NCBI GenBank assembly: GCA_030390025.1
Contig: CM059432.1
Location: 40,116,001 to 40,180,000, forward strand
Reading direction: 5' to 3'
DNA: 64,000 nucleotides
From: Squalus acanthias
Taxonomy: Eukaryota
Made by a program: the position numbers and the translations under genes. Shown in pieces: positions 8,235 to 52,220 of the stretch; position 1 is the stretch's first letter, and every line of letters begins with the position of its first letter. The notes beneath the pieces are model-generated. The model was not told where the DNA came from. It made no database searches and saw only the letters and a list, made by a program, of their open reading frames with translations.

Positions 8235-8343
8235 AATAAAAACAGAAAATGCAGGAAATACTCAGCAGGTCAAGTAGCATCCGTGGAGAGAGAAACAGAG
8301 TTAACGTTTCAGATCGATGACCTTTCGTCAGATGACCTTTCTC
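8235..8343 (-). mobile_element. PLE family B terminal mini-insertion
   Basis: Matches the terminal repeat at 36700-36805; flanked by 15-bp TSD ttcca(a/g)gaattttga (8220-8234 / 8344-8358). Confidence 0.8.
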
Positions 8344-8796
8344 TTCCAGGAATTTTGAGCCTATTGCCAGCATTGGGAAGATGCTGTGGTGCAATCCAGC
8401 ATCCCCTTCAAACCTGTGAGATTATTTTGATAAATAGTCTGCACTTGGAACAGGTGAACCACTTTCGTATAAATGTACTCCACCCTACCCCACCAGTTCA
8501 CCCCCACACGCGCATTCAATCCCACTGAGCCCTCATAATCAAAAGGAGCCAAGGACCCCTTGATGAAAGCAAGATTCCAGTACCCCACTGCCCTGCCTTC
8601 CTAAACGCCCACTGGCCGTATGTAACACCTAGCCCTTGAAAGACTTCTGCCTTTTTCAAAATGACTGCTTATCCAAGAGGACCAAGTTGGCATCAGAATT
8701 TTAAAATGCGATGCCCTGATACCATTTAGCGCTGATTGTTACAATGGCACCTACTTCAGATCAGTGAATAATAACACTGTATAAATACCTAATTTA

Positions 8797-10245
8797 AAAT
8801 CACAGAATCTTACAGCACAGAAGGAGGCTAGTTGGCCCGTTACGTCTGTGCCAGCTCTTTGAAAGAGCTGTCCAGTTTAGTTCCATAACCCTGCTCTTCA
8901 AGTACATGCCCAATTGCCTTTTAAAAGTTCCTATGGAATCTGATTCCACCACCCTTTCTCCTCATTTCCTCTCTATTTCTTTTGCCAATTATTTTAAATC
9001 TATAACCTCTGGTTACTGACCCACTTGCCAGAGGAAACAGTTTCTCCCTACTTGCTTTAGCAAAACCCTTCATAATTTTGAATACCTCTGTTCGGTTTCC
9101 CCTTAACCTTCTCTTCTCGAAGGAGAACAATCTCAGCTTCTCCCCACATAACTGAATTCCCATATCCCTAGTATCATCCTGGCAAACCTCCTCTGTAGCC
9201 TCTCCAGGGCCTTGACATCCTTCCTAAAGTGTGGTGCCCAGAATTTTACACAATACTCCAGCTGAGGCCTAACCAGTGATTTGTAAAGGTTTAGCATAAC
9301 TTCCCTGTTTTTGCATTCAGTGCCCCTAATTGCCAAGTCAAATATCCCATATGCTTTCTTAACCGCCTTAACTTGCTCTGCCACCTTCAAATATTTGTGA
9401 ACCCCCCCAGATCCCTCTGTTCTTGCATCCCCTCAAAATATTATCATTTAGATTATGCTGCCTCTCCATGTTATTTCTCCCAAAGTGCATCACTTCACAC
9501 TTCTCTGCATAAAATTTTACCTGCCATGTATCTGCCCATTTCACCAGTCTGTCTATATCTTCCTGAAGTCTGCTACTATCATACTCCCTATTTACTACGT
9601 TGCAAAGTTTTGTATCGTCTGCAAACTTCGAAATTGTACTCCCTATACTGAAGTCCAGATCATTTTATTTATAACAAGAAAAGCAATGGTCCTGATACTG
9701 ACCCCTGAAGGACCGTACTACATACTTCTCTCCAGTCAGGAAAAACATCCGTTCATCACTACTCTCTCTCACCTATCCCTTAGCCCATTTCGAACCCAAG
9801 TTACCACTGTCCCTTTAATACTATGTGCTTCTATTTTCTGAATAGTATGTTATGAGGTACTTTATCAAATGCCTTTTGAGAGCTCACATATACAACATCT
9901 ACTGCACTACCTTCATCAACCTTCTCTGTTACTTCATCAAAGAACTTAATCAAGTTAGTCAGACACTATTTGCCTTTAATGCATCCGTGCTGGCTGTCCC
10001 TTATTAACCCATGCTTCAAGTGAGAATTAATTTTTTCCTTGACGATTGTTTCTAGTTGTTTTCCCATTGGAACTCTGTAGTCAGAGCTTCTGCTATCTCC
10101 ATCCTCACTTCCCTCAGCAACCTAGGATGCATCCCATCTGGACCAGGTGACTTGCTAACTTTGAGTGATGCCAACCTATTTAGCACTTCCTTTCTATCTA
10201 TTTTCATCCTATCCAATATCTCTACTCCCCCTCCTCTACTCCGAC
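8797..10245 (-). mobile_element. Decayed CR1 LINE
   Basis: ORFs 9133-9390 (RPQLEYCVKFW) and 8921-9163; SPGPDG region near 10130. Confidence 0.85.
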
Positions 10246-10259
10246 ATTAACTTAGAATA

Positions 10260-10345
10260 GAAAAGAAAAAGAAAGACTTGCATTTATATAGCACCTTTCA
10301 TGACAACCGGACATCCCAAAACGCTTTACTGCCAATGAAGTACTA
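10260..10345 (-). mobile_element. 3' tail fragment of Deu/SacSINE1-like SINE
   Basis: Reverse complement of 14515-14597. Confidence 0.7.
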
Positions 10346-12630
10346 TGAAGAATCATATAATACAGCAGAGAAGGAGGTCATTAGGCCTATCGAGTCTGCG
10401 CCGGCTCTTTCGAAGAGCAATCCAGTTAGTCTTATTCCCCCGCTCTTTCCCCATATCCCTGCAATTTTTCGCCAAGTATTTATCCAATTCCCTTTTTGAA
10501 GGCTAGTATTGAATTTGTATTCACCACCCTATCGGGCAGTGCATTCCAAATCCTAACCACTCGTGTGAAAAAAAAGTTTTTCCTCATGTCACCTCTGGTT
10601 CTTTTGCCAATTACTTTAAATCTGTGCCCTCTTGTTATTGATCCTTCAGCCATTAAAAAAACTTTCTCTTTATTTACTTTATCTAAAACCTTCATGATTT
10701 TAAACACCTCTATCAAATCTCCTCTTAGCCTTCTCTGCTCTAAGGCGAACAATCCCAGCTTCTATCCACGTAACTGTAATCGCTCATTCCTGGAACTATT
10801 CTATTAAATCTCTTTTGTACCCTCTCCAAAGCCTTCATGTCCTTCCTAAAGTGTGATGCCCATAACTGGACACAATACTCCAGCTGGGGCCGAACTAGTG
10901 TTTTATATAGGTTTAACATATCTTCCTGACTTTTGTCCTCTGTCTTTTTACGAAGACCAGGATCCCATAAGCTTTATTAACTGCTTTGTTAACCTGTCTT
11001 GCCACCTTCAAAGATTTGTGCACAAACGCCCCCCCCCCTCTCTGTTCTTGCAAGCCCTTTAAAATTGTACCATTTAGCTTGTATTGTCTCTCCTCATTCT
11101 TCCTACCAAAATGTATCGCCTCACACTTTTCCGCGTTGAATTTCATCTGCCATGTGTCCGCCCATCTCACCAGCCTGTCTAAGTCCTCTTGAGGTCTATT
11201 ACTATCTTCCTCACTATTTGCTACACTTCTAATTTTGAAATTATGCCCTATATACCCCAAGTCCAAGTCATTAATGTATATCAAAAACAGCAGTGGTCCT
11301 AGTACTGAACCCTGGGGAATGCCACTGTACACCTTCCTCCAGTCCAAAAAAACAGCTGTCCACCACAACTGTTTTCTATCCCTTAGCGAATTTTATATCC
11401 ATGCTGCTACTGCCCCCTTTATCCCATGGGCTTCAATTTTGCTAACGAGCCTAATACATGGTACTTTTTCAAATGCCTTTTGAAAATCCATATACATAAC
11501 ATCAACTGCACTGCCTTCTGTTACCTCATCACAAACTCAATCAAGTTAGTCAAGCATGATTTGCCCTTAACAAATCCTTTTAGTCCATGCTAGTCCAAGT
11601 GGCTGTTAATTTTCTCCTGGATTATTGTTTCCACCACCGACGTTATACTGACTGCCTTGTAATTGCCTTCTCCCCTTGTAATTGCCTTCTCCCCTGTTTT
11701 GAATATGTGTAACATTTGCAATCCTCCAGTCCTCTGGCACCACCCCTGTATCTAAGGAGAATTGGAAGATTGTGGCCAGCACCTCTGCCATTTCTACCCT
11801 TGCTTCCCTCAGCAACCTAGGATGCATCCCATCCGGACCGGGTGACTTATCCACTTTAAGTACTGCCAGCCTTTCTAGTACCTCCTTGTATCCTTTTCAA
11901 TTATCTCTGCACTCTCTGTATTCTGCCTGGTTTTCGATTGTATTCTGTATCTGACATTAGGCATAAACTTCCCTTTTCTGTTTTATTCTAACATCTATTT
12001 CTTTTGTCATCCAAAGAGCTCTAGCTTTGGATGGCCCATCTTTCCTCTTTATGGGAATATGCTTGGTTTGTACCCAAACTATCTCCGCCTTGAAGGCCTG
12101 CCATTGCTCATTTACTGTTGTCCTGGCCAATCTCCCTTCTCAAATCACTGGAATTAGCTCTCTTCCAGTTGGGTATTTTCACCTTTGATTTTTCTTTGTC
12201 CCTTTCCATAACTACTTTAAACCTAATGATATGTTCACTATTACCCAGATGTTCTCCCACTGAAACGCACTCCACTTGCCCTACTTCATTCCTCAGAACT
12301 AGATCCAGCACTGCTTCATTCATCCAAAAGCAAAGTACTGCGGATGCTGGAAATCTGAAATAAAAACAGAAAATGCTGGAAATGCTCAGCAGGTCAGGCA
12401 GCATCTGTGGAGAGAGAAACAGAGTTAACGTTTCAGGTCGAAGGGTCATCGACCTGAAACGTTAACTCTGTTTCTCTCTCCACAGATGCTTCCTGACCTG
12501 CTTCATTCATCGTTGGGCTAGAAACATTGATTAATTAAGAATGTTCTCCTGTACACATTTTAGGAATTCTTCACCCTCCTTGCCCTTTACTCTGTTTTCC
12601 CCCAGTCTATATTAGGGTAATTGAGGCCCT
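10346..12630 (-). mobile_element. Decayed CR1 LINE (end of EN domain to 3' end), interrupted by a PLE mini-insertion
   Basis: ORFs 10913-11368 ([18 protein letters not shown]), 11606-11854, 12108-12449 (EAVLDLVL). Confidence 0.87.
12325..12497. mobile_element. PLE family B fold-back mini-insertion
   Basis: Perfect 14-bp TSD ctgcttcattcatc (12311-12324 / 12498-12511); terminal repeat followed by its inverted partial copy, with the junction in the hammerhead motif. Confidence 0.88.
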
Positions 12631-14597: not shown

Positions 14598-16623
14598 TTA
14601 AGCAAATATGTCTACTTCCCCCCAACCCCCATCCCACAGAGTACACGGTGACCTTAGAAACAGGCTATGTTAAACATAGCTCTGCTTTAGCAGCAGATAG
14701 CTTTATTAAAGTTAAACCCTTTACACCTATTTGGAAAAGCTATCAAGATATAAACACTCCCTCACTATTATAAAATACATTTTGCCAGCAGTTCATTACA
14801 CTTCCACTTGCCCACAGACATTCTATGGGATTTTGCACTGGAACTTACTGTAAATCAAAAAGCCAAAACGACACTGCACCCTCTGCAGGAGATCTGGGAC
14901 CTGTGTGAATAAGGCAAGCAACTATGTATCTCCTTGACCAATCAGATTGAAGAATCGTTAATGACCAGCAAACCAGGAAGTGTCAGTTAGAATATTTAAT
15001 TCAATGTCAAATCAGGTACAGAAAGCAAAATAGAGGGAAAGAAAGATGGGAATAAGAGAGAAAAATTTACATTTTTTAATTTAAAAAAAAAATCTCAAAC
15101 AATAATTAAAATCTGAAGGAATAAGACTCCACACTTGTAAATATTAATGTTTAGTGCCAGAGAGGTTATTTGGCTATAATTAAGACTTAACTCACCATTA
15201 AAAATTTGCTTATACTAGAATGGACAAGCCCTAACTTTTTAAAATGGTTACAGCATAGAAGGAGGCCATTCAGCCTGTCGAACATACATACGAATTAGGA
15301 GCAGGAGTAGGCCACTCGGCCCTTCGAGCCTGCTCCGCCATTCAATAAGATCATGGCTAATCCGATTACTCCACGTTCCCGCCTACCCCCGATAACTTTT
15401 CACCCCCTTGCTTACCAAGAATCTATCTACCTCTGCCTTAAAAATATTCAAAGACTCTGCTTCCACCGCCCTCTGAGGAAGAGAGTTCCAAAGACTCACG
15501 ACCCTCTGTGAGAAAAAATTTCTCCTCATCTCTGTCTTAAATGGGCGACCCCTTATTTTTAAACAGTGACCCCTAGTTCTAGATTCTCCCACAAGAGGAA
15601 GCATCCTCTCCACATCCACCCTGTCCAGACCCCTCAGGATCTTATATGTTTCAATCAAGTCACCTCTTATTTTTCTAAACTCCAGCGGATACAAGCCTAG
15701 CCTGTCCAACCTTTCCTCATAAGACAACCTGCCCATTCCAGGTATTAGTCTAGTAAACCTTCTCTGAACTGCTTCCAACGCATTTACATCCTTCCTTAAA
15801 TAAGGAGACCAATACTGTACACAGTACTCCAGATGTGGTCTCACCAATGCCCTGTAAACTGAAGCATAACCTCCCTACTTTTGTATTCAATTCCCCTCTC
15901 AATAAACGATAACATTCTATTAGCTTTCCTAATTACTTGCTGTACCTGCATAGTAACCTTTTGCGATTCATGCACTAGGACACCCAGATCCCTCTGCATC
16001 TCAGAGCTCTGCAATCTCTCACCATTTAGATAATATGCTTCTTTTTTATTCTTCCTGCCAAAATGGACAACTTCACATTTTCCCACATTATACTCCATTT
16101 GCCAGATCTTTGCCCACTCACTTAAGTTATCTATATCCCTTTGTAGCCTTCTTATGTCCTCTTCACAATTTACTTTCCTACCTATCTTTGTGTCATCAGC
16201 AAATTTAGCAACCATACCTTCGGTCCCTTCATCCAAGTCATTTATATAAATTGTAAAAAGTTGAGGCCCCAGCACTGATCCCTGTGGCACACCACTCGTT
16301 ACATCTTGCCAATCAGAAAATGACCCATTTATGCCTACTCTCTGTTTCCTGTTAGCTAGCCAATCTTCTATCCATGCCAATATGTTACCCCCTACACCGT
16401 GAGCTTTTATTTTCCGCAATAACCTTTTATGTGGCACCTTATCAAATGCCTTCTGGAAATCTAAGTACAGTACATCCACCGATTCCCCTTTATCCACAGC
16501 ACATGTTACTTCCTCAAAGAACTCCAATAAATTGTGATGTGGAGATGCCGGCGTTGGACTGGGGTGGACAAAAATGAGAAGTCGCACAACACCAGGTTAT
16601 AGTCCAACAGATTTATTTAAAAT

Positions 16624-16659
16624 TACAAGCTTTCGGAGCTGTCGCTCCTTCTTCAGGTA
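16624..16659 (-). ncRNA. Minimal type I hammerhead ribozyme motif (3' pLTR of PLE-A)
   Basis: Minus strand UAC-CUGAAGA-A-GGAGC-gaca-GCUCC-GAAAG-CUU-GUA: catalytic boxes, 5-bp stem II, palindromic AAGCUU helix III, stem I UAC/GUA. Confidence 0.8.
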
Positions 16660-16889
16660 GGGTAGCTGTGAGAGAATCTCCCAGAATTCACAATATAAAC
16701 ACAGAAAAAATGTATTCAAATCTTTCCCTACATCAAAGACACACTAAGAGCACAGCCAAGACAATGAGATGTGTCCCAGGGGGTCCAACGTGTCAAAACA
16801 CCTGCTGGCCGTATATCCTCTCCATTTGGGTTTGGTTCTTGTGTTAGTTTTTTAAAAAAAAACCTGGAAAGACCGGCCATGATGTCAAG

Positions 16890-19568
16890 TCACGTTCTGT
16901 ATCGTGACATGAACCTGATATCGCGATTGAGGCCATCCTCATGAGTGCGGAACTTGGCTATCAGTTTCTGCTCTATGATTTTGCGCTGTCGTGTATCCCG
17001 AAGGCCGCCTTGGAGAACGCTTACCCGCAGATCCGAGGCTAAATGCCCCTGACTGCTGAAGTGTTCCCCGACTGGGAGGCAACCCTCCTGCCTGGCGATT
17101 GTTGCGCGGTGTCCGTTCATACGTTGTCTCAGTGTCTGCATGGTCTCGCCGATGTACCATGCTCTGGGGCATCCTTTACTGCAACGTATCAGGTAGACAA
17201 CGTTGGCCGAGTCACATGAGTATGTACCATGTACCTGGTGGGTAGTGTCCTCACGTGTGATGATGGTATCTGTGTCCATGATCTGGCATGTCTTGCAGAG
17301 GTTGCCGTGGCAGGGTTGTGTGGTGTCGTGGTTGCTGTTCTCCTGAAAGATGGGTAATCTGCTGCGAACGATGGTACTTTTGAGGTTAGGCGGCTGCTTG
17401 AAGGCGAGTAGTGGAGGCGTGGGGATGGCCTTAGCAAGGTGTTCGTCGTCATCGATGACATGTTGAAGGCTGCGAAGAACATGGCGTAGTTTTTCCGCTC
17501 CGGGGAAGTACTGGACGACGTAGGGTACTCTGTTGGTTGTGTCCCGTGTTCGTCTTCTGAGGAGGTCTATGCGGTTTTTCGCTGTGGCCCGTCGGAACTG
17601 TCGATTGACGAGTCGAGCGTCATATCCCGTTCTTACGAGGGCGTCTTTCAGTGTCCGTAGGTGTCCATCGCGTTCCTCCTTGTCTGAGCAGATCCTGTGT
17701 ATTCGCAGGGCTTGTCCATAGGGGATGGCTTCTTTAACGTGGTTAGGGTGGAAGCTGGAGAAGTGGAGCATCGTGAGGTTGTCCGTGGGCTTGCGGTAGA
17801 GTGAAGTGCTGAGGCGTCCGTCTTTGATGGAGATTCGTGTGTCCAAGAATGAAACCGATTCTGAGGAGTAGTCCATGGTGAGTTTGATGGTGGGATGGAA
17901 CCTGTTGATGCTATCGTGTAGTCCTTTCAGTGATCCTTCGCCGTGGGTCCAAAGGAAGAAGATGTCGTCGATGTATCTGGTGTACAGCGTTGGTTGGAGG
18001 TCCTGTGCAGCGAAGAAGTCTTGCTCGAACTTGTGCATGAAGATGTTGGCGTATTGGGGTGCGAATTTGGTCCCCATGGCTGTTCCGTGTGTTTGGGTAA
18101 AAAAATGGTTGTCGAAGGTGAAGACATTGTGGTCAAGGATGAAGCGGATGAGTTGTAGGATGGCGTCCGGAGATTGGCTGTTGTTGGTGTTGAGTACTGA
18201 GGCTGTCGCAGCGATGCCGTCATTGTGGGGGATATTGGTGTAGAGTGCCGATACGTCCATCGTGACGAGGAGTGTTCCTGGTTCAACTGGTCCATGGGTG
18301 CTGAGTTTCTGCAAGAAGTCTGTAGTGTCGCGACAGAAGCTGGGGGTTCCCTGTACGATGGGTTTCAGGATGCCCTCGACGTACCCAGAGAGGTTCTCAC
18401 ACAGGGTTCCGTTGCCTGATACGATAGGACGTCCGGGTGTGTTGGCTTTGTGTATCTTTGGGAGGCAGTAAAAGTCTCCTACGCGGGGAGTACGTGGGAT
18501 GCGAGCGCGTAGGATGTTTTGAAGGTCTGGATCGAAGGTCTTGATCAGTCTATTGAGTTGGCGGGTGTGTTCTTTGGTCGGATCTGCGGGTAGCTGTCTG
18601 TAGTGTTCCTGGTTGTCCAGTTGTCGGTATGCTTCTTTGCAATAGTCCATTCTGTTCTGTATGACGATGGCTCCTCCTTTGTCCGCTGGTTTGATGACGA
18701 TGTTGCGGTTGGTCTTGAGAGCGTGGATGGCGTTGCGTTGTGCTCGGGTGACATTCTGGACTGTCTTGTGAGTACGGCTGATGAATCTGGCGTTGATGCA
18801 TTTCCTGACAGCTTGAGCATACATGTCAAGCTTAGGGCTGCGACCCTCCGGAGGGGTCCAATTTGACTCTTTCTTCCTCGGTTGTAGCACTGCGGTTCCC
18901 TCTGTCTGCTGTTCCGGATCATTGATTGTCCCATTAGGAATGTTGCTGACATCTTGGGATTTGTGGTAGTATTCCCGGATCCTCATTCTCCTGATGAATT
19001 CCTCTGTGTCCGCCGCGAGACCGATGGGGTCCATTTTGGTGGTGGGGCAGAACTTGAGCCCTAGGGCGAGAACTTCGATTTCGTCTGGTTGAAGGGTGTG
19101 GTCCGACAGGTTGACGATGGACTTCCCTGTGGTTGCAACCGTGGTACCGGGGGAGGCTTGGTTGCAGCTGGTGGTTACGCCGAGTTTCTCAAGCTTCCTG
19201 TTCTTGATGCGCATGTAGGCAGCGTAGTTCCGTTGCCTCGTCTGTTTGGCGGTGTCTCGTAGCTGGTCTGCTGTGTCCTGAGCACAGGCTGAGAGCATGG
19301 ACTCTATCTTGGTTTCGAGGTTGCGACGTCTGCTGTAGAGCTGGTGTACGAGATGGTTGAGGAGTGTGCGAGAGGTACGACGGCAAAGTCTCTCAGCGTA
19401 GTCTGTGTTGTATGTCGACTTGAGTGGGTTCGTGATCTGTAGTCCTTTCGGAATCTTGTCTGCTTTCTTGCATCTCTGCAGGTACTTGATGTCTGTGTCA
19501 ATATGCGCGATCTTCTTGGCGATTCTCTCCACTTTGAGCCGGCAGTTTGCGGTGTCAATAGAGGTCAT
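16890..19568 (-). CDS. PLE polyprotein: reverse transcriptase + Cys-rich linker + GIY-YIG endonuclease (892 aa from first ATG)
   Basis: Uninterrupted ORF; motifs ADKGG, LPKIHK, GRPIVS, DVSALYT, GTAMG, RYIDDIF, FLD, LYRKPT; CxxxxCxxC linker; VVYLIRC..YIGET..R..GH..GLN. Confidence 0.95.
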   Translation of the reverse strand: MTSIDTANCRLKVERIAKKIAHIDTDIKYLQRCKKADKIPKGLQITNPLKSTYNTDYAERLCRRTSRTLLNHLVHQLYSRRRNLETKIESMLSACAQDTADQLRDTAKQTRQRNYAAYMRIKNRKLEKLGVTTSCNQASPGTTVATTGKSIVNLSDHTLQPDEIEVLALGLKFCPTTKMDPIGLAADTEEFIRRMRIREYYHKSQDVSNIPNGTINDPEQQTEGTAVLQPRKKESNWTPPEGRSPKLDMYAQAVRKCINARFISRTHKTVQNVTRAQRNAIHALKTNRNIVIKPADKGGAIVIQNRMDYCKEAYRQLDNQEHYRQLPADPTKEHTRQLNRLIKTFDPDLQNILRARIPRTPRVGDFYCLPKIHKANTPGRPIVSGNGTLCENLSGYVEGILKPIVQGTPSFCRDTTDFLQKLSTHGPVEPGTLLVTMDVSALYTNIPHNDGIAATASVLNTNNSQSPDAILQLIRFILDHNVFTFDNHFFTQTHGTAMGTKFAPQYANIFMHKFEQDFFAAQDLQPTLYTRYIDDIFFLWTHGEGSLKGLHDSINRFHPTIKLTMDYSSESVSFLDTRISIKDGRLSTSLYRKPTDNLTMLHFSSFHPNHVKEAIPYGQALRIHRICSDKEERDGHLRTLKDALVRTGYDARLVNRQFRRATAKNRIDLLRRRTRDTTNRVPYVVQYFPGAEKLRHVLRSLQHVIDDDEHLAKAIPTPPLLAFKQPPNLKSTIVRSRLPIFQENSNHDTTQPCHGNLCKTCQIMDTDTIITREDTTHQVHGTYSCDSANVVYLIRCSKGCPRAWYIGETMQTLRQRMNGHRATIARQEGCLPVGEHFSSQGHLASDLRVSVLQGGLRDTRQRKIIEQKLIAKFRTHEDGLNRDIRFMSRYRT

Positions 19569-19656
19569 GATGTGGAGATGCCGGCGTTGGACTGGGGTGG
19601 ACAAAAATGAGAAGTCGCACAACACCAGGTTATAGTCCAACAGATTTATTTAAAAT

Positions 19657-19692
19657 TACAAGCTTTCGGAGCTGTCGCTCCTTCTTCAGGTA
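19657..19692 (-). ncRNA. Minimal type I hammerhead ribozyme motif (5' pLTR of PLE-A)
   Basis: Identical to 16624-16659; ~90 nt upstream of the ATG. Confidence 0.8.
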
Positions 19693-21600
19693 GGGTAGCT
19701 GTGAGAGAATCTCCCAGAATTCACAATATAAACACAGAAAAAATTTATTCAAATCTTTCCCTACATCAAAGACACACTAAGAGCACAGCCAAGACAATGA
19801 GATGTGTCCCAGGGGGTCCAACGTGTCAAAACACCTGCTGGCCGCATATCCTCTCCATTTGGGTTTGGTTCTTGTGTTAGTTTTACCTGGAAAGACCGGC
19901 CATGATGTCAAGTCACGTTCTGTATCGTGACATGAACCCGATATCGCGATTGAGGCCATCCTCATGAGTGCGGAACTTGGCTATCAGCTTGGCAATAAAT
20001 TGGTTAAACATGATTTCCCTTGCACAAAACCATGTTGACTCTGCCTGATTACTTTGAACTTTTCTAAATGCCCTGCTATAACGTCTTTAATAATAGCTTC
20101 TAACATCTTCCCTATGACAGATGTTAAGCTAACTGGCCTGTAGTTTCCTGCTTTCTGTCTCCCTCCCTTTTTGAATAAAGGAGTTACATTCGCTATTTTC
20201 CAATCTAATGGGACCTTCCCCGAATCTAGGGAATTTTGGAAAATTTAAACCAACGCATCAACTATCTCACTAGCCACTTCTTTTAAGACCCTAGGATGAA
20301 GTCCATCAGGACCCGGGGACTTGTCAGCCTGCAGCTCCAACAATTTGCTCAGTACCACTTCCCTGGTGATTATAATTTTCTTGAGTTCCTCCCTCCCTTC
20401 CATTTCCTGATTTACAGCTATTTCTGGGATGTTACTTGTATCCTCTATAGTGAAGACCGATGCAAAATACCTGTTCAATTCAACTGCCATCTCCTTATTT
20501 TCCATTATTAATTCCTCAGACTCACTTTTTATAGGACCAACGCTCACTTTGTTAACTCTTTTTAAAATATCTATAGAAACTCTTACTATCTGTTTTTATA
20601 TTGCTAGCTAGCTTTCTCTCGTACTCTAATTTTTCTCTCCTTATTAATCTTTTAGTCATTCTTTGCTGTTTTTTATATTCTGTCCAATCTTCTGACCTGC
20701 CACCCATCTTTGCGCAATTATATGCTTTTTCTTTAAGTTTAATACTATCTTTAGCTTTTTTAGTTAACCACGGATGGTGGGTCCTCCCCTTGGAATTTTT
20801 CTTTCTTGTTGGAATGTATATACTGTATTCTGTGTATTTTGAAATATCCCCTTAAATGTCTGCCACTGCAACTCTATTGACCTATCCCTTAACCTAATTT
20901 GCCAGTTCACTTTAGCTAGCTCTGCTTTCATGCCCTCATAATTGCCCTTATTTAAGTTTAAAATGCCAGTCTTGGACCCACTCTTCTCTCTCTCAAACTG
21001 AATGTAAAATTCAATCATATTATGATCGCTGCTACCTAGGGGCGCCTTCACTATGAGGTCATTAATTTATCCTATCTCGTTGCACAATACCAGGTCTAGT
21101 ATAGCCTGCTCTCTGGTTGGCTCCAGAACATACTGTTGTAAGAAACTATCCCGAAAACATTCCATGAACTCTTCATCTATGCTACCTTTGCCCATCTGAT
21201 TTTTCCAGTCTATATGCAGATTAAAATCCCCCATGATTATTGCCATACCCTTCGGACAAGCTCCCATTATTTCTTCCTTTATATTCCATGTGGTTACTGT
21301 TAGGGGGCCTGTACATCACCCCCACAAGTGATTTCTTGCCTTTATTATTTCTCATCTCTACTCAAACCGCTTCTACATCCTGGTTTCCTGAACTTAGGTC
21401 ATCCCTCTCTATTGTGCTAATACCATCATTAATTAACAGAGCCACCCCTCCACCTTTTCCCACCTTCCTGTCCTTCCTAAATGTCATGTACCCTTCTCTG
21501 CAAGAGCACGTCAGCTAGTGCCACTCCCCTGCCCTTTCCCCATAGCCCTGGAACTTTTTTTCCTTCAGGTACTTATCCAATTCCCTTTTGAAAGCCACGC

Positions 21601-24221: not shown

Positions 24222-24485
24222 GTCATGATGCGGAGATGCCGGTGTTGGACTGGGGTGGACAAAATTGAGAGGTCGCACAACACCAGGTTATAGTCCAACA
24301 GTTTTATTTGAAATCACAAGTATGCAATTGTAAGGTACACATGCTTTGTTCTCTATCTATATATGCTTTGGCGATTCTGTATCTAATTTACTTCACCTGA
24401 GGAAGGAGCAATCGATAGCTCCGAAAGCTTGTGATTTCAAATAAAACTGTTGGACTATAACCTGGTGTTGTGCGACCTCTCAATT
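24222..24485. mobile_element. PLE family A-related fold-back mini-insertion
   Basis: 13-bp TSD ttgttttatatat (24209-24221 / 24486-24498); pLTR segment in both orientations. Confidence 0.88.
24393..24434 (+). ncRNA. Minimal hammerhead ribozyme motif, sense to NAGPA pre-mRNA
   Basis: UCAC-CUGAGGA-A-GGAGC-aaucgaua-GCUCC-GAAAG-CUU-GUGA; stem I shows a compensatory change relative to the 16624 copy. Confidence 0.8.
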
Positions 24486-29819: not shown

Positions 29820-29845
29820 CTAGCTGTTGCAAAGTGAAATCTGTA

Positions 29846-29883
<38 letters not shown>

Positions 29884-29889
29884 CCTCTC

Positions 29890-29923
<34 letters not shown>

Positions 29924-33725: not shown

Positions 33726-33775
33726 TATTCATATTAATGGGAAACTAAACATTTACTAAATCTTTTTTTAAATAG

Positions 33776-36669: not shown

Positions 36670-38109
36670 AATACAATAGCAAAATACTGCGGATGCTGGA
36701 AATCCGAAATAACAACAGAAAACGCTGGAAAAACTCAGCAGGCCAGGCAGCATCCGTGGAGAGAGAAACAGAGTTAACGTTTCAGGTCGAAGACCTTTCG
36801 TCAGAACTGGAAAAAAGCAGGAAATGGAATAGATTTTAAAGCAAGTTTAGAGGCTGGGAAGGGGATGAAAGAACAAAAGGGAAGGTCAGTGATAGGATAG
36901 AAAGCAGGAGAGATTAAGAGACATTGAGCGATATTCAAGGCAAGAGGAGGTGGTAATGGGACAGGTTAAGGAACAAAGGATGGCTCTAGATGAAGTGTGA
37001 ATTGCGCTGGCAGAATGAAGGACAGCTGCCATGTGGGAGGGAAGGAAAAAAGGCCAAACAAAAAGTGTGGATAAAAAAAATATATAAATATATATATATA
37101 TGTGATGGGGGCCGAGGTTATGATCTGAAATTGTTGAACTCTATGTTGAGTCCAGAGGGCTGTAGAGTGCCGAATCGAAAGATGAGTTGCTGTTCCTCGA
37201 GCTTACGCTGAGCTTCCGTGGAACAATGCAAGAGGCTGAGGACGGTGAAGTCTGAGTGGGAATGGAGCGGTGAATTAAAGTGACAGGCCACCGGGAGCTC
37301 GGGGTCCCCCTTACGGACTGAACGGAGGTGTTCTGCAAAGCGGTCACCCAATCTGCGTTTGGGGCCCCAAACATCCCTTCCAGGTGAAACAGCGATTTAC
37401 TTGTACTTCTTGCAATTTAGTATACTGTATTCGCTGCTCACGATGTGGTCTCCTCTACATTGGGGAGACCAAACGCAGATTGGGTGACCGCTTTGCAGAA
37501 CACGTCCGTTCAGTCCGTAAGGGGGACCCCGAGCTCCCGGTGGCCTGTCACTTTAAATCACCGCTCCATTCCCACTCGGACCTCACCGTCCTCGGCCTCT
37601 TGCATTGTTCCACGGAAGCTCAGTGTAAGCTCGAGGAACAGCAACACATCTTTCAATTAGGCACTCTACAGCCCTCTGGACTCAACATAGAGTTCAACAA
37701 TTTCAGATCATAACCTTGGCCCCTATCTCTCTCTCTCTTTTTATCCACACTTTTTGTTTGGCCTTTTTTCCTTCCCTCCCACATGGCAACTGTCCTTCAT
37801 TCTGCCAGCGCAATTCACACTTCATCTAGAGCCATCCTTTGTTCCTTAACCTGTCCCATTACCACCTCCTCTTGCCTTGAATATCTCTCAATGTCTCTTA
37901 ATCTCTCCTGCTTTCTATCCTATCACTGACCTTCCCTTTTGTTCTTTCATCCCCTCCCCCCTTTTCCCAGCCTCTAAACTTGCTTTAAAATCTATTCCAT
38001 TTCCTGCTTTTTTTCCAGTTCTGACGAAAGGTCTTCGACCTGAAACGTTAACTCTGTTTCTCTCTCCACGGATGCTGCCTGACCTGCTGAGTTTTTCCAG
38101 CGTTTTCTG
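36670..38109. mobile_element. PLE family B, 5'-truncated with inverted duplication (~645-bp arms)
   Basis: 15-bp TSD tagactaactcgtcc (36655-36669 / 38110-38124); GIY-YIG ORF 37384-37713 (LVYCIRC..YIGETKRRLGDRFAEH..GLN) and its inverted copy 37118-37351. Confidence 0.93.
38017..38053 (+). ncRNA. Minimal hammerhead ribozyme motif of PLE-B (inverted twin at ~36772-36808)
   Basis: AGUU-CUGACGA-A-AGGUC-uuc-GACCU-GAAAC-GUU-AACU: cores, stem II, palindromic AACGUU helix III, stem I AGUU/AACU. Confidence 0.78.
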
Positions 38110-38222
38110 TAGACTAACTCGTCCTTTGATATTCCTGTTCCTGGTAATTCATAGTGTAAAATGGATAATCTAATAAGAGCGATTTGGTTTGAATTAACAG
38201 AAGTAAAAAAATTGCATTACAG

Positions 38223-40357: not shown

Positions 40358-41107
40358 GGCCCAGAAATTGATCTCGCTCTGTTCCCGCGGGGGTAAGGAG
40401 CAGGCGCGATCTCTCACTCCGCGTTGGCTTTTTCAGATCCAGCTCGCACGAACTTGATGTTCTAGACATCAGCTGGGCAGTGCTTGCGTATCCCACCGGC
40501 GTAGTGAATTCGTGCGAGCTGTGGGATCACGTGACTCAGTTAGAGCCAATGGCAGCACACCATCTTCCATTCATAAGTTTCACATACGTGCTGTGAAAGC
40601 TATGAATCTTACACACCCCCAAAATAACAGCTAAACCTCAATTAAATTAAAAAAAAAACCCATCACATTAATAAAATAAGTATAGTTAAATAAATTAACC
40701 ATTTTAAATAAAAAATAACATTTTGAAAAAATTTAAAATCTTTTAAAAAGTTATAAAAAATAAACTTACCTGTCTTTAAATTCTGTAAAAAAAAAAGATA
40801 TACCTGTTAAAAAAAAAATTCAAAATAATACTTAATTCACTACTTACCTTGTTAAAAGTGGGTCTTACTCCTCCTTTTTTCGTTTCTAAAATCTTCCGTC
40901 CTTACCTGCGCGTCCAAAGCATTAAGTGCACAGCGTGCGCGCAGCCTGTAGCGCGCACGCGGTGCACCGAGGAACCGCCCCCTTTTCCAAAGACCAAGTG
41001 CCGGTTTTCAGCGCATGCGCAGTGCATGCAGAAAACCAGCAATTGGAGAGAGAATACGCGAGAGTACGCAGTGCGTACTCTCGCGCAGCGGGATCAATTT
41101 TTGGCCC
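40358..41107. mobile_element. Harbinger-type MITE, inner copy of the same family in opposite orientation
   Basis: TIRs ggcccagaaattga / tcaatttttggccc; TSD ATT (40355-57 / 41108-10); colinear reverse complement of the outer copy. Confidence 0.88.
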
Positions 41108-41265
41108 ATTATTTTGAATTTTTTTCAACAGGTATATCTTTTTTAGAGACTTTAAAGAAAGGTAAGTTTATTTTTATAACTTTTTAAAAGATTTTAAATT
41201 TTTTCAAAAATTTAATTTTTTGTTTAAAGTGGTTAATTTATTTAACTATACTTATTTTATTAATG

Positions 41266-43741
41266 GCTCCTTCCTCAGGTAGGTTAGCAGTGAGAGAATC
41301 TCCCAGAATTCACAATTTAAACACAGACAAAATCTATTCAAATCTTTCCCTACATCAAAGACACACTAAGAGCACAGCCAAGACAATGAGATGTGTCCCA
41401 GGGGGTCCAACGTGTCAAACCACCTGCTGGCTGCATATCCTGTCAATTTGTGTTGGTTCTTGTGTTAGTCTGTTTAAAAAAAAAACAAACACCTGGGAAG
41501 ACCGGCCATGATGTCAAGTCACGTTCTGTATCGTGACATGAACCCGATATCGCGATTGAGGCCATCCTCATGAGTGCGGAACTTGGCTATCAGTTTCTGC
41601 TCTATGATTTTGCGCTGTCGTGTATCCCGAAGGCCGCCTTGGAGAACGCTTACCCGCAGATCCGAGGCTGAATGCCCCTGGCTGCTGAAGTGTTCCCCGA
41701 CTGGGAGGCAACCCTCCTGCCTGGCGATTGTTGCGCGGTGTCCGTTCATACGTTGTCTCAGTGTCTGCATGGTCTCGCCGATGTACCATGCTCTGGAGCA
41801 TCCTTTACTGCAACGTATCAGGTAGACAACGTTGGCCGAGTCACATGAGTATGTACCGTGTACCTGGTGGATAGTGTCCTCACGTGTGATGATGGTATCT
41901 GTGTCCATGATTTGGCATGTCTTGCAGAGGTTGCCGTGGCAGGGTTGTGTGGTGTCGTGGTTGCTGTTCTCCTGAAAGATGGGTAATCTGCTGCGAACGA
42001 TGGTACTTTTGAGGTTAGGCGGCTGCTTGAAGGCGAGTAGTGGAGGCGTGGGGATGGCCTTAGCAAGGTGTTCGTCGTCATCGATGACATGTTGAAGGCT
42101 GCGAAGAACATGGCGTAGTTTTTCCGCTCCGGGGAAGTACTGGACGACGTAGGGTACTCTGTTGGTTGTGTCCCGTGTTCGTCTTCTGAGGAGGTCTATG
42201 CAGTTTTTCGCTGTGGCCCGTCGGAACTGTCGATCGACGAGTCGAGCGTCATATCCCGTTCTTACGAGGGCGTCTTTCAGTGTCCGTAGGTGTCCATCGC
42301 GTTCCTCCTTGTCTGAGCAGATCCTGTGTATTCGCAGGGCTTGTCCATAGGGGATGGCTTCTTTAACGTGGTTAGGGTGGAAGCTGGAGAAGTGGAGCAT
42401 CGTGAGGTTGTCCGTGGGCTTGCGGTAGAGTGAAGTGCTGAGGCGTCCGTCTTTGATGGAGATTCGTGTGTCCAAGAATGAAACCGATTCTGAGGAGTAG
42501 TCCATGGTGAGTTTGATGGTGGGATGGAACCTGTTGATGCTATCGTGTAGTCCTTTCAGTGATCCTTCGCCGTGGGTCCAAAGGAAGAAGATGTCGTCGA
42601 TGTATCTGGTGTACAGCGTTGGTTGGAGGTCCTGTGCAGCGAAGAAGTCTTGCTCGAACTTGTGCATGAAGATGTTGGCGTATTGGGGTGCGAATTTGGT
42701 CCCCATGGCTGTTCCGTGTGTTTGGGTAAAAAAATGGTTGTCGAAGGTGAAGACATTGTGGTCAAGGATGAAGCGGATGAGTTGTAGGATGGCGTCCGGA
42801 GATTGGCTGTTGTTGGTGTTGAGTACTGAGGCTGTCGCAGCGATGCCGTCATTGTGGGGGATATTGGTGTAGAGTGCCGATACGTCCATCGTGACGAGGA
42901 GTGTTCCTGGTTCAACTGGTCCATGGGTGCTGAGTTTCTGCAAGAAGTCTGTAGTGTCGCGACAGAAGCTGGGGGTTCCCTGTACGATGGGTTTCAGGAT
43001 GCCCTCGACGTACCCAGAGAGGTTCTCACACAGGGTTCCGTTGCCTGATACGATAGGACGTCCGGGTGTGTTGGCTTTGTGTATCTTTGGGAGGCAGTAA
43101 AAGTCTCCTACACGGGGAGTACGTGGGATGCGAGCGCGTAGGATGTTTTGAAGGTCTGGATCGAAGGTCTTGATCAGTCTATTGAGTTGGCGGGTGTGTT
43201 CTTTGGTCGGATCTGCGGGTAGCTGTCTGTAGTGTTCCTGGTTGTCCAGTTGTCGGTATGCTTCTTTGCAATAGTCCATTCTGTTCTGTATGACGATGGC
43301 TCCTCCTTTGTCCGCTGGTTTGATGACGATGTTGCGGTTGGTCTTGAGAGCGTGGATGGCGTTGCGTTGTGCTCGGGTGACATTCTGGACTGTCTTGTGA
43401 GTACGGCTGATGAATCTGGCGTTGATGCATTTCCTGACAGCTTGAGCATACATGTCAAGCTTAGGGCTGCGACCCTCCGGAGGGGTCCAATTTGACTCTT
43501 TCTTCCTCGGTTGTAGCACTGCGGTTCCCTCTGTCTGCTGTTCCGGATCATTGATTGTCCCATTAGGAATGTTGCTGACATCTTGGGATTTGTGGTAGTA
43601 TTCCCGGATCCTCATTCTCCTGATGAATTCCTCTGTGTCCGCCACGAGACCGATGGGGTCCATTTTGGTGGTGGGGCAGAACTTGAGCCCTAGGGCGAGA
43701 ACTTCGATTTCGTCTGGTTGAAGGGTGTGGTCCGACAGGTT
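41266..43741 (-). mobile_element. PLE family A, second copy, 5'-truncated (open 714-aa RT/GIY-YIG frame at 41519-43663)
   Basis: 15-bp TSD cttattttattaatg (41251-41265 / 43742-43756); about 7 aa differences from the 16890-19568 ORF over 714 aa. Confidence 0.95.
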
Positions 43742-45835: not shown

Positions 45836-48800
45836 TCATAGAGTCATAATCATAACGGCACAGAAGGTGGCCATTCGGCCCATCGAGTCTGTGCTGGCTC
45901 TCTGTAGAGCGATCCAGTCAGTCCCATTCCCCCGCTCTATCCCCGTAGCCCTGCAAGTTTATTTCCCTCAAGTGCCTATCCAGTCTCCTCTTGAAAACAT
46001 TGAGTGTGGCCGCTTCCACCACTTCCGTCGGCAGCGAGTCCAGATCCTCACCACTCGCTGCGTAAAAAAGTTTTTCCTCACGTCTCCCCTGTATCTCTTG
46101 CCCAAAACCTTAAATCTGTGTCCCCTAGTCCTTGTACCATCAACTAGTGAGAACAGCCTTTCCCCGTCTAGCCTATCCAACCCGTCATAATCTTGTACAC
46201 CTCTATCAAATCAACCCTCAACCTCCTTTGCTCTAATGAAAACAAATCCAGCTTCTCCAACCTGCCCTTATAGCTAAGATCCCCCATCCTGGAACCATTC
46301 TGGTAAATCTCCTCTGCACCCTCTCAAGGGCCTTCACATCCTTCCTAAAGTGTGGTGACCAGAACTGAACGCAATACTCCAGCTGTGGCCTAACCAGGGC
46401 TTTATAAAGGTTTAGCATAACTTCTCTACTTTTGTACTCAATACCTCTATTTATGAAGCCCAAGATCCCATATGCTTTGCTAACCACTCTCTCAATATGT
46501 CCTGCCACCTTCAGGGACCTATGCACATTAACTCCCAGGTCCCTCTGTCCCTGCACACTCTTTAAAACTGTGCCATTAAGTGTCTATTGCCTCTCCCTGT
46601 TCCTTCTGCCAAAATGCATTATCTCACACTTCCCTGTATTAAATTCCATCTGCCACTTGTCTGCCCATTCTGCTAGCCTTTCTATGCCCTGTTGCAGTCG
46701 ATTGGTTTCATCCTCACTGTTTGCCACACTCCCAAGTTTGGTGTCATCGGCAATTTAGAAATTCTACTCTGTATTCCAATATCCAGGTCATTTATTTATA
46801 TTTTTTTATATATATATATATATATATCAACAAAGGCTGTAGCTCCAGCACTGACCGTTGGGGAACACCACTGTCTACCATCCTCCAGTCTGAAAAACAG
46901 CCAGTTACCACAACTCGCTGTTTTCTGTCCTTATCCAAGCTGCCGCTGACCCACCTATTTGACGAGCCTCAATTTTGTTAACCAGCCTTCTGTGTGGTAC
47001 TTTGTCAAACGCCTTCTGAAAATCCATGTAGACAACATCCACTGCATTCCCTTCATCAATCCTCTCTGTTACTTCATCAAAAAATTCAATTAGATTAGTC
47101 AAACACGATCTGCCTTTAACAAATCCGTGTTGGCTCTCCTTAATTAGCTTAAACCTCTCCAAGTGCCCGTTAATTTTTTCCTTGATTATTTCTAAAACTT
47201 TACCCACCACTGATGTTAAACTGACCGGCCTGTAGTTACTAGGATTGTCCTTGCACCCTTTCTTGAACAATGGTGTCACATTTACCACTTTCCAATCCTC
47301 GGGCACCTCCCCCACATCTAGGGAAGATTGGAAAATGATGGCAAGCCCTTCCGCTATCTTCTCCCCCAATTCCCTTAGCAACCTAGGATGCAGGCCATCT
47401 GGACCAGGCGACTTGTCCACTCTAAGCATACCCAGCCTTTCTCGTACATCCTGTATCAATTTTCACCCCTTCCATTAATTCTACCTTTTCCACTTCTACC
47501 GATAGTTTGTCAGCATCCACCTCCTTAGTAAACACCGATACAAAGTACTCATTGAGTATTCTAGCCTTGCCCTGCGCCTCTAAGCATATATCACCTTCTT
47601 TGTCCCCAATAGGCCCCACCCCGCCTCTTGCTACCCACTTACTGTTTACATGCCGGTAGAAGATTTTTGGGTTCCCTTTTATGTTAATCGCCAATCTACT
47701 CTCATATACTCTCTTTGCCAATCTTATTTTCATCTTCACATCACCTCTCAACTTATTGTATTTGGTCTGGCTCTCCCTTGAAGAATTCACCTGACATTCA
47801 TCTTACACCCTCTTTTTTTGTTTCATCATCTTCTCTATCTCCCTCGTCATCCAAGGAGCCCTTGCTTTGGTCTCTTACCCTTCCCTCTTGTTGGAATGTA
47901 CCTAGCCTGTACTTGGAACATCTCCTCCTTAAAGATCATCCATTGTTCCGTTACAGTTTTCCCTGTCAGTCTTTGATTCCATTTTACCCTGGCTAGATCC
48001 TTTTGCATCCCATTGAAGTTAGCCCTATTCCAGTTTAGAAGTTCCACTCTAGCTTGTTCCTTGCTCCTCTCCATTGCTAATCTAAATCTTATGATATGAT
48101 GATCACTGGTATCAAGTGTTCTCCCACAGACACTTGTTCGACCTGGCCCACCTCATTCCCCAGCACAAGATCCAGCAATGCCTCCTTCCTACAAAAGCAA
48201 AATACTGCGGATGCTGGAAATCTGAAATAAAAACAGAAAATGCTGGAAATACTCAGCAGGTCAGGCAGCATCTGTGGAGAGAGAAACAGAGTTAACGTTT
48301 CAGGTCGATGACCCTTCGTCAGACCTGCTGAGTATTTCCAGCATTTTCTGTTTTTATGCCTCCTTCCTAGTTGGATCAAGAACATATTGGTCAAGGAACT
48401 TCTCCTGACACATTTCAGAAATTCCTCCCCCTCCTTTCCCTTTACCCTAGCATTATCCCAATCGATATTTGGGTAATTAAAGTCCCCCAATATCACCCCT
48501 CTATAGTTCTTGCATATCTCTGCGATTTCCCTGCAGATTTGCTCCTCTACCTCCCACTCACTATTTGGAGGCCTGTAGAATACCCCCAATAGCGTGATCA
48601 TACCCTTTTTGCTCCTCAACTCTAACCAAATGGATTCTGTCCTTGTCCCCTCAAAAACATCCTTCCTTTCTAACACTACAATGTCTTCCTTAATCAGCAT
48701 TGCCACCCCACCTCCCTTTTTTCCTTCCCTATCTTTTCTGAACACCTTGTACCATTGAATATAAAGTGCCCAGTCCTCACCGTTTTTAAGCCACGTTTCC

Positions 48801-49636: not shown

Positions 49637-50850
49637 CTTCCCCTCCACCATGGTTGACAGGGCCCCCGACTGTGTCCATTTCAATTTACGCACTTCAGCC
49701 CTCACCCCCTCCCTCCCTCCCAAAACCATGATACAGTCCCTTTGTCACCTTCCACCCCACCAGCCTCCGCATTCAACGGATTACTCTCCATCATTACCGC
49801 CACCTCCAGCATGATGCCACCACCAAACATATCTTCCTCTCCCCTCGCCTTTCAGGAGTCCGAAGGGACCATTCCCTCCGTGACACCCTGGTCCACTCTT
49901 CCATCACTCCCAACACCTGCCCAACTTCCCCCAGCAGGTTCTCATGCAAATGCAGGAAATGCAACACCTGCCCGTTCACCTCCTTCCTTCCCATCATCCA
50001 GCACCCCAAACACTCCTTCCGGGAGAAAAGGCGATTTACTTGTACTTCTTACAACTTAGTATATTTTATTTGCTGCTCACGATGTTGTCCCTCCACATTG
50101 GGGAAATTAAACCCAGATTGGTGAACCTTCCGTCTGCAGTCGTGACTCCGAGTTTCCAGTCACTTGCCACTTTAATTCTCTATTCCACTCCCACTCCCAC
50201 TCTGACCTCTGTTCTTGACCTCCTACACAGTTCCAATGAAGCTCAACGCAAGCTCGAGGAACAGCATCTCATCTTTCTACTAGTATTTTACAGCCTTCAG
50301 GCCTTAACACGAAGTTCAACAACTTCAGACCTTAACTACCGCTCCCGTTTTCTCTTAGACAGCAGCTGTTGGTCATGGAGGATGGCTGCACCAGAGCCAC
50401 TGGGAGTGACGAAGGTGTGGGCTGGTGCTTGGGGTGGAATCTCCTATCAGTACATGGCCGGCGAGGTGGTCTGCACCCCTGGGGTCTACCTGCATTTCTT
50501 CTGCCACATTCCTGGGCCGTGGAACACTTCTCTTTGCCAGATTTTCCCGGCTTCTCTGCTTCCCTCCTCCTGCTTTTCTGCTGTAACCATTTATACCTCC
50601 TCTGGAGCTATCTATTGTTTCTGTGCTTGTCGCATTATCACCTCACTTTGTTTTTTGTCTTGCACCATCATCACTTGCCATTTAATCACTCCTGCCCTCC
50701 AACCTATCATAGATCTCTCCCTTTTGTTCTTTTCATGTCTCCCCCCGACCCCCACTTTCCCCTGGCTCTGTAATTGCTTAAAAGCTGTTCATCTCTAACA
50801 TCTTCCAGTTCTGATGAAAGGTCACTGACCTGAAATATTAACTCTGTTTG
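49637..50850 (+). mobile_element. Older decayed PLE family B copy (GIY-YIG region, 3' UTR, hammerhead relic)
   Basis: Similar to 37370-37715 (EAQRKLEEQHLIF); ends cagttctgatgaaaggtcactgacctgaaatattaactctg. Confidence 0.8.
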
Positions 50851-51208: not shown

Positions 51209-51344
51209 CTGTCGAAGGGTCATCGACCTGAAATGTTAACTCTGTTTCTCGCTCTACAGATGCTGCCTGACCTGCTGAGTATTTCCAGCATTTTCTGTTT
51301 TTATTTCAGATTTCCAGCATCTGCAGTATTTTGCTTTTGTATTG
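51209..51344 (+). mobile_element. PLE family B terminal mini-insertion
   Basis: 10-bp TSD ttgcttattt (51199-51208 / 51345-51354); begins in the hammerhead core. Confidence 0.85.
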
Positions 51345-51788
51345 TTGCTTATTTTAGTTAGTTTTGCTTTTTTATAAAGTCATAAAAGTGACTGATAAAA
51401 GCAATCTCCTATTTTTTTTTAAGAAAGCTAATTTAGCCGTGATACTCCATTTATTTTAACTAGAAAATGTGTTCAAATCTAGAAATTTAAATAAGCATCC
51501 CTGTCAGAAGACTCAAATTTAAATCGAGCAGTAAATGGTACAAACTCAGTTGCCCACGATAGTCTATTTTTGGTGAGAGTACTTCACAGGGAACTGTTTC
51601 TTCCCTATCGCCCATGTCTTGGAAGCACACCTTGTGTTGGTCAATTACTGGGCAGTATTTCCAGCAACTACAGTAGGTACAGGCTGTGCTCTGCTGGCTA
51701 AAGGAGAAAATGAGACGTTGGAGGATATGGATTGTGAGAAAGAATAAAATGTGTAGCTGTTCATTTTTTTTTTAAACTGCCTTCTAAG

Positions 51789-51955
51789 CAATGTTCCCTG
51801 TAAGCTGTGCTTTGTTCTGCATGGCCTGTTTCTTTTAGTGCGTGGTCCCTTTAAATTTCCGCACATGCGCGGTATTTACAACGGAGAAGCCGGTGAGCGG
51901 CCTGCACGGGACCTTTCCCGTTACTGTGCAGCCGCGCAGCTGAGAGGGAGCATTG
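51789..51955. mobile_element. 167-bp hAT-type MITE
   Basis: TIR caatgttccct / agggagcattg; degenerate 8-bp TSD cttctaag / cttctgat; homologous to 61018-61184. Confidence 0.75.
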
Positions 51956-52027
51956 CTTCTGATGACCCAAAATGGCAGGCAAGAAGCGCGTGCGCACTTC
52001 TGACCACCATATTGGGTAAGGACAAAC

Positions 52028-52220
52028 AAGAATACAAAAGCAAAATACTGCGGATGCTGGAAATCTGAAATAAAAACAGAAAATGCTGGAAATACTCAGC
52101 AGGTCAGGCAGCATCTATGGAAAAACATTTTGTCAGTTCTGACAAAAGGTCATCGACCTGAAACGTTAACTCTTTCTCCCTGCACAGATGCTGAGTATTT
52201 CCAGCATTTTTTGTTTTTAT
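52028..52220. mobile_element. PLE family B fold-back mini-insertion
   Basis: 11-bp TSD taaggacaaac (52017-52027 / 52221-52231); both orientations of the terminal repeat. Confidence 0.85.

Follow-up and report, generated by a model that had tools for sequence, protein, structure and literature searches.

Short Penelope-like element inserts of a shark genome tend to begin at the edge of a hammerhead ribozyme and are likely run-off copies of an RNA leader

The DNA considered here, hereafter the window, is a 64,000-nucleotide stretch of the genome of the shark Squalus acanthias (GenBank assembly GCA_030390025.1, contig CM059432.1, positions 40,116,001 to 40,180,000 of the forward strand). It holds copies of two families of Penelope-like elements (PLEs), among them six short inserts, A to F, that consist of little more than the PLE terminal repeat, or pseudo-long terminal repeat (pLTR). 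A first-pass annotation, made from the letters alone, had described these six as a swarm of hammerhead-bearing mini-elements with breakpoints clustered in the ribozyme; their identity as terminal-repeat copies, their coordinates, their target-site duplications (TSDs) of 10-15 bp and the inverted second arm of four of them (B, C, D and F, each joined head-to-head) have all been verified (Table 1). Here, we describe where such copies begin and propose that an insert starting at the ribozyme edge is likely a cDNA of full extent, whose synthesis ran off the RNA at its 5' end, a predicted transcription start. Statements on published work refer to the accessible portions of the papers cited.

Positions within the elements are counted from C3, which is +1 and opens the CUGANGA box of the hammerhead, and the predicted cut of family 1 falls after +29. 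A profile search of the window recovered 11 arms of family 1 and five of family 2, and nothing else significant. Inserts A, B, D, E and F belong to family 1; C, to correct the first-pass annotation, comes from the second family. The short inserts are 94-99% alike among themselves and about 92% alike to the long copy G, which served as the family-1 reference. Family-1 arms end at +90 to +99 (the short end) or at +131 to +136 (the tail end), with copy H and one arm of B as exceptions, and four of the five head-to-head pairs in the window combine one tail end with one short end, while the inverted junctions differ among all five. Such an inverted arm, with or without a tail, belongs to the standard anatomy of PLEs. 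The inserts are hammerhead-bearing in a limited sense: a complete ribozyme (core plus helix I) is kept in C, but the other five are broken, with helix I missing from A and D, core mutations in E and F, and no CUGA box in either arm of B. The hammerhead assignment rests on the consensus core, the helices and published PLE context (core, helix II, a palindromic helix III and a helix I of 3-4 bp are present in G, H, L and C); Rfam gave no hammerhead family match for the window elements, returning hairpin look-alikes only.

The family-1 arms tend to start at the same place (Table 1). Four of the 11 begin within one 11-nt window and six within one 27-nt window, which under four smooth-truncation nulls gives scan p values of 0.01-0.04 and 0.001-0.009, respectively, with window widths picked post hoc and with the arms of one insert not independent of each other. 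The breakpoints quoted in the first-pass annotation were placed correctly, but it omitted other arm ends, which lie off the CUGANGA box (D at +61 to +63, F at +45, C at -76, B at +5, and those of the long copies G, H, L and M). Its remark that the inserts are not simple cleavage products is borne out; neither end usually coincides with the cut site.

Table 1. PLE copies and promoter-like motifs in the window (positions of the window; signed positions relative to C3)
Feature	Coordinates	Strand	Family	5' end(s)	TSD	Description
Insert A	8235..8343	-	1	-1	15 bp, 1 mismatch (8220/8344)	Leader copy to short 3' end (~+97)
Insert B	12325..12497	.	1	+15/+5	14 bp (12311/12498)	Minus arm ~+15 (+13..+17) to tail end; plus arm +5 to ~+66; TCGA/CGA microhomology junction in loop II
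Full-length PLE, copy L	16535..19992	-	2		10 bp	919-codon open frame
Insert C	24222..24485	.	2		13 bp (24209/24486)	Minus arm from 24320 (centre of AAGCTT palindrome, 3 nt 5' of predicted cut) to tail end; plus arm begins at -76, spans TATA box and complete minimal hammerhead (~24393-24434) and ends at short end
TATA box in insert C	24358..24364	+	2			Perfect match, 39 nt before C3; predicted promoter
Insert G	36670..38109	.	1	-567/-561	15 bp	Long head-to-head pair; C3 of its hammerheads: 36804 (minus), 38021 (plus)
Initiator-like motif	36804..36810	-	1			A at -4 = 36808; holds 36807 peak
TATA-like box	36834..36840	-	1			1 mismatch, 36 nt before C3; twin 37984-37990 plus
Copy M	41266..43741	-	2		~15 bp	5'-truncated
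Insert D	48192..48355	.	1	-1 (or -5)/+62	14 bp (48178/48356)	Minus arm -1 (or -5 with 1 mismatch) to tail end; plus arm 34 nt, ~+62 (+61..63) to short end
Insert H	49700..50849	+	1			Old long relative; Neptune-type Cys linker; 5' limit approximate
Insert E	51209..51344	+	1	-2	10-12 bp (51197/51343)	Single leader copy, -2..+1 to tail end; core mutated
Insert F	52028..52220	.	1	+45/-11	11 bp (52017/52221)	Minus arm +45 to tail end; plus arm diverged, -11..-5 to short end

The same end recurs across the species. Contigs of four public runs were mapped to 36650-37400, and two of these runs, X1 and X5, are DNA from two samples in two studies. In both, loose ends with long, unrelated flanks pile up at 36807 (218 of 7675 partly aligned contigs in X1 and 146 of 5011 in X5), a peak of 2.8-2.9% of partly aligned contigs that stands 43-fold over a flat expectation and 8-13-fold over a depth-weighted one. 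Tail ends, pooled at 36670 over all copies reaching that far, number 287 (X1) and 193 (X5) contigs. Because the control rows at 36815 and 37362 show that the reported place is the last aligned base, 36807 corresponds to G(-3). The flanks of these loose ends agree at 0.33-0.34, with a median loose length of at least 255. Since the main subfamily matches the reference G down to -12 and diverges only there, the peak is not an effect of reference divergence; that 36807 is the target site of another element is unlikely, as the loose ends share no sequence. Contig depth falls 4-5-fold across the 5' edge of the ribozyme and is then level upstream, a step to which subfamily divergence contributes. The other two runs, presumed to be RNA, have a lower depth upstream that is given no weight here, since parts of a gene cannot be ranked by contig depth. 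The loose ends also show the family-1 tail to be a few bases longer than it is in copy G, and rare head-to-tail joints of short copies, from about -4/-1 to the tail end, occur in 1-3 contigs among the joints listed.

A second animal family behaves alike. A protein search of genome contigs for PLE loci placed 10 of 13 in one bin, G001, which is listed as a bacterial genome, carries dozens of animal-type PLE copies (L002-L013, L015-L105) with several hammerhead families, and evidently holds much eukaryotic (animal) DNA. The hammerhead of its main family is a variant form. Arms of this family were picked by a tail motif, a choice blind to the 5' end; all 78 found could be aligned, and 16 were dropped (13 passengers of another repeat, two duplicates and one misaligned), leaving 62 arms in 52 insertions. 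Of these insertions, 21 begin between -16 and +1 and none between -47 and -17; the counts move by one or two once second arms overlooked in a few of the single copies (reaching -21 in one and -1 in another) are allowed for. The arm-level hazard per 100 nt is 4.6 at -16 to +1, against 0.4-0.5 at +60 to +2 and 0.1-0.2 upstream, which corresponds to rate ratios of 11 and 24 for a bin that was set after seeing the data. Within the cluster, sub-peaks lie at -10 to -8 and at -3, and 13 of the 21 insertions extend beyond the whole core and proximal helix I (-16 to -7). The first-pass annotation had staked its case on a breakpoint peak in place of a smooth truncation curve, and such a peak is now present in two organisms.

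In all ten head-to-head pairs of G001, one tail end faces one short end, and nine of the ten have a TSD of at least 10 matching bases (one lies in a microsatellite). One same-junction pair exists among these ten palindromes, and its members differ by a private change present in both arms of one. An apparent second peak of 15 arms at +33 was rejected, since 12 of these and one more at +30 are one fragment inside another repeat, namely a 60-nt piece of PLE tail that rides there in 13 copies, whose flanks are shared on either side (L054, L059, L062-L066, L068-L070, L076, L077, L083). At two separate loci (C119:1229 and C383:5730; L050, L071), the arm begins precisely where the 3' cleavage product is predicted to begin, +29; a 13-bp TSD accompanies one of them, and both are a possible trace of cleavage in vivo. 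At the 5' junction of insert A in the window, 8333-8343 is an 11-nt duplicate of stem II sequence; similar short re-copied pieces occur at the G001 junctions C728, C617 and C283. Two further G001 families have too few short copies for a 5'-end test. Other tail-motif scans gave one chance match in metagenome contigs and none in viral or genome contigs, and protein scans of viral contigs gave no match.

Between a TATA-like box and the cut site, the peak lies roughly 30 nt downstream of the former and roughly 30 nt upstream of the latter. In G and H, the family-1 box precedes the initiator A(-4) by 30-33 nt, the same box is present in the loose-end consensus of the major subfamily, and an initiator paired with a TATA box at that spacing is found at 0.08-0.3% of window positions. 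Perfect TATA boxes occur at -39 in insert C, at -39 in the G001 main family (so that -8 is TATA+31) and at -41 in L004, each with a shuffle p of 0.005-0.025; boxes with one mismatch lie at -36 in family 1 and at -43 in family 2, and the shuffle p of the other copies is 0.05-0.3. In the full-length family-2 copy L, the tail ends at the ATG, and the short unit is therefore the 5' leader.

These positions suggest how the short copies may have arisen. Two steps are observed, the 3' ends at two fixed regions (short at ~+95, tail at ~+135) with TSDs, and the 5' ends at -3 in this species and at -10 to -8 and -3 in the second animal. A promoter in the pLTR would start RNA at the peak, both on the full-length mRNA and on any copy that has the TATA box. 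Reverse transcriptase (RT) initiating in the leader would then yield a run-off cDNA of 100-140 nt that ends at the RNA start, and RT initiating in the 3' pLTR would yield the ordinary long, smoothly truncated copies. For the inverted arm, the other nick would support a second cDNA, or a copying of the first one, and a head-to-head joint would form, either blunt or at a short palindrome; palindromes at inverted junctions have been noted for PLEs (PMC3846280). Short copies without a TATA box, and mostly without helix I, would be dead ends and not masters. The regular pairing of one tail end with one short end fits two priming events on two nicks, and private changes common to both arms point to one source, with twin priming and copy-back both compatible. 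The enzymology of a lizard PLE of another clade, studied in vitro, offers precedents (PMC11167929): its RT initiates inside the RNA at two sites, about 110-145 nt downstream of the hammerhead region, both target strands are nicked and extended, products are shorter when the RNA has been shortened at its 5' end, and hammerhead mutants left product size unchanged.

Several considerations weigh against placing a transcription start at the peak. The start itself is predicted from TATA and initiator motifs in sequence. The shark peak falls on G(-3), one base further in than the initiator A(-4), the -3 sub-peak of G001 is at TATA+36, and the box of copy H has two mismatches. Among nine extra hammerhead families, a TATA box with at most one mismatch occurs at -45 to -34 in six, as compared with three of nine in each of two control windows, a modest excess. 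In both organisms, the peaks also fall on the 5' edge of helix I, and the extended helix of the G001 family reaches -10; as the peak bases are equally the 5' strand of helix I, position alone cannot tell promoter from structure. In Drosophila virilis, the start maps about 120 nt before the ribozyme and intron end, with the intron between (PMC2377424, PMC4209133), so a promoter at the ribozyme is not a universal rule. On the side of the data, no TSD was found for most unpaired arms of the G001 cluster, including four of the five at -3, run X1 was flagged as under-counted, and the rows listed were 24 of 1851 loose ends, under an unstated ordering rule, and 15 of 69 joints.

The helix I coincidence is the natural starting point for a structure-linked stop, that is, RT pausing or falling off, or trimming of cDNA or RNA, at the 5' edge of the hairpin of hammerhead and helix I on a longer template. 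We regard this as unlikely, even though the peaks line up with the 5' strands of helix I, proximal and extended (-3 in both organisms, -10 to -8 in G001), a single long hairpin (-11.7 to -14.8 kcal/mol) is the fold of the monomer, and inverted junctions favour palindromes in or beside the ribozyme (B and C in the window; -10 and +33 in G001). An RT moving 3' to 5' would meet the 3' strand of the hairpin first and should stall at about +30, where few ends lie (hazard 0.4-0.5 versus 4.6); the folding z-scores are just -1.4 to -1.7; and the Anolis enzyme copied through the ribozyme region in vitro on templates reaching 126 nt upstream (PMC11167929). The TATA spacing would, moreover, go unexplained. 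RT stalling at the folded ribozyme, one of the two origins put forward in the first-pass annotation, is accordingly disfavoured: the peak lies on or past the 5' edge, the far side of the ribozyme, where the TATA-like box predicts the RNA start. A 3' splice site might fix the same base, because the initiator-like motif doubles as a splice acceptor, with a pyrimidine tract and a CAG ending at -3 in family 1 that resemble an intron end, so that splicing factors or spliced RNA would set the junction; a D. virilis intron does end at helix I (PMC4209133). Yet the loose ends at -3 do not share an exon (agreement 0.33), a GT-AG joint is absent from the 15 of 69 joints listed, and the G001 family clusters alike with 30 AG-free nucleotides ahead of its ribozyme, which makes this very unlikely.

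The remaining alternatives concern what kind of copy the short inserts are. Resembling short interspersed elements (SINEs), leader-only masters might be transcribed and copied in trans by PLE protein, the 5' end being inherited. The depth from hammerhead to tail is 4-5 times that of the upstream untranslated and endonuclease regions (in part through subfamily divergence), the inserts resemble each other more closely than they resemble G, the rare head-to-tail joints fit such a family, and non-autonomous PLE derivatives have been described (PMC8557442; bioRxiv 2026.07.22.740005). Against this stand a TATA-like box that lies outside the short copies, 5' ends spread over several bases, five window junctions that are all different, G001 palindromes that share a junction and differ by the change in both arms of one, and the same peak in an unrelated family of another animal. 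We therefore hold it to be quite doubtful, and independent amplification of the short inserts shows no sign in the window or in the G001 pairs. Random 5' truncation, with clustering as a by-product of short copies whose ribozyme lies 100-135 nt from the 3' end, would suit the heavy truncation usual for PLEs (PMC8557442), the small numbers and post hoc widths in the window, and the arm ends elsewhere (+45, +62 and -76), but it is largely refuted by a single-base peak in two DNA runs and the ~11- and 24-fold hazard excess in G001, and is highly improbable. The same degree of improbability attaches to a retrozyme-like RNA, linear or circular, that is bounded by hammerhead self-cleavage and reinserted as monomers. 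The two G001 arms at +29, and copies M and H ending close to the ribozyme, would suit it; the main peak, however, is 30-40 nt upstream and the 3' ends 65-105 nt downstream of the cut, the window has no tandem arrays, and just two of the 52 G001 insertions start at the cut, so that a cut-bounded unit was not found. With five of six ribozymes broken, 3' ends at two normal PLE RT-start regions and inverted junctions that differ between inserts, the ribozyme-delimited class of mobile RNA suggested in the first-pass annotation is not supported.

The elements and their anatomy are known. PLE structure is textbook matter (PMC8557442, PMC8969392), and the features found here (a parent with RT and GIY-YIG endonuclease, a pLTR hammerhead near the 3' end, a TSD, an inverted arm and an optional tail of 30-40 bp) are those of endonuclease-positive PLE units, for which TSDs, a head-to-head truncated arm, a tail at one end, junction palindromes and solo pLTRs have been reported and TATA- and initiator-like motifs noted in a pLTR (PMC8557442, PMC3846280). 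The accounts consulted treat 5' truncation as variable, in contrast to the sharp recurring end at TATA+30 that makes leader-only copies a main product class here. The Anolis Poseidon element PAc likewise has two internal RT starts that bracket the tail downstream of the hammerhead, extends both strands, and in vitro makes products whose length is set by the RNA 5' end, as proposed here; it belongs to another clade, and its open reading frame (ORF) starts inside the ribozyme, whereas the family-2 tail ends at the ATG (PMC11167929). Where short genomic copies of PAc begin is not a topic of the text consulted. Metazoan PLEs carry minimal type I hammerheads with the CUGANGA-helix II-GAAA core, palindromic helix III (AACGUU, AAGCUU) and short helix I found here, mostly as single motifs in truncated PLEs (PMC4209133, which maps no insertion ends). 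Non-LTR retrozymes are also short, non-coding, hammerhead-related and derived from PLE pLTRs, many of them dispersed as monomers, but they form tandem units with a ribozyme each and cut-to-cut circles, unlike the single or inverted, TSD-flanked inserts described here, which are not cut-bounded (PMC7229834; bioRxiv 10.64898/2026.07.22.740005). We found no description of a promoter-defined 5'-end peak in the literature consulted, which comprised listings, abstracts and accessible text; a supplementary genomic-coverage plot of this region in PMC11167929 may already show the pattern. The end rule is plausible and seemingly unreported.

Should the short copies be run-off cDNAs, PLE truncation would consist of two processes, the RNA would begin with the ribozyme, and transcription starts could be read from the most common class of insertion with no need of RNA data; otherwise, the inserts would be ordinary debris of PLEs, with ends biased by structure. 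A further step is conceivable. How the pLTR is regenerated has been unexplained (PMC2377424), and the role of the hammerhead is open as well (PMC2377424, PMC8557442). On an RNA that starts at the hammerhead, RT might prime in the 5' leader, run off at the cap and normally jump to the matching 3' pLTR, thereby building the partial tandem repeat, a tentative idea that we consider possible and no better than that.

In retroviruses and LTR elements, minus-strand strong-stop DNA arises in this manner: synthesis is primed close to the 5' end of the RNA and runs off at the cap, giving a short cDNA of defined length. The PLE case would differ in that no tRNA primer or RNase H is implied and that target-primed cDNA integrates, strand transfer being the proposed part. 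Were it true, the leader-only copies would be cDNAs integrated without the jump, pLTR regeneration would be explained, and short copies would map PLE transcription starts genome-wide.

The long copies identify the parents. Both families are assigned to Neptune-type PLEs by a cysteine linker motif: the CX2-5CxxC linker between RT and endonuclease, a Neptune motif (PMC8557442), is seen in the family-2 ORF and in copy H. In Pfam searches, the family-2 ORF matches RVT_1 and the family-1 fragment in G matches GIY-YIG above cutoff; the family-2 ORF received no GIY-YIG call there, its motif being visible by eye. Copy L encodes RT and, at the C terminus, a GIY-YIG-like region, has a 5' pLTR from -303 and hammerheads at 19689 and 16656, and its frame has its nearest relatives in skates, rays and sharks. 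It is apparently intact, with identical 133-nt terminal segments, and sits in a CR1-like long interspersed element. Insert G comprises the GIY-YIG end, the 3' untranslated region, hammerheads and one tail; its arms are joined via an 88-nt spacer in the endonuclease region, giving a 1.4-kb near-palindrome. Copy H starts far upstream and has its 3' end 10 nt past the predicted cut, at neither of the usual 3' ends. The 3' end of copy M falls within stem II of the hammerhead, short of the predicted cut by ~16 nt, and could reflect priming on ribozyme-cleaved RNA. Long inverted repeats (84-86%) at 40062-41265 and 43838-44069 flank copy M and are perhaps those of a DNA transposon that received it. 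Finally, broken frames at 29820-31052 appear to resemble a Harbinger-type transposase.

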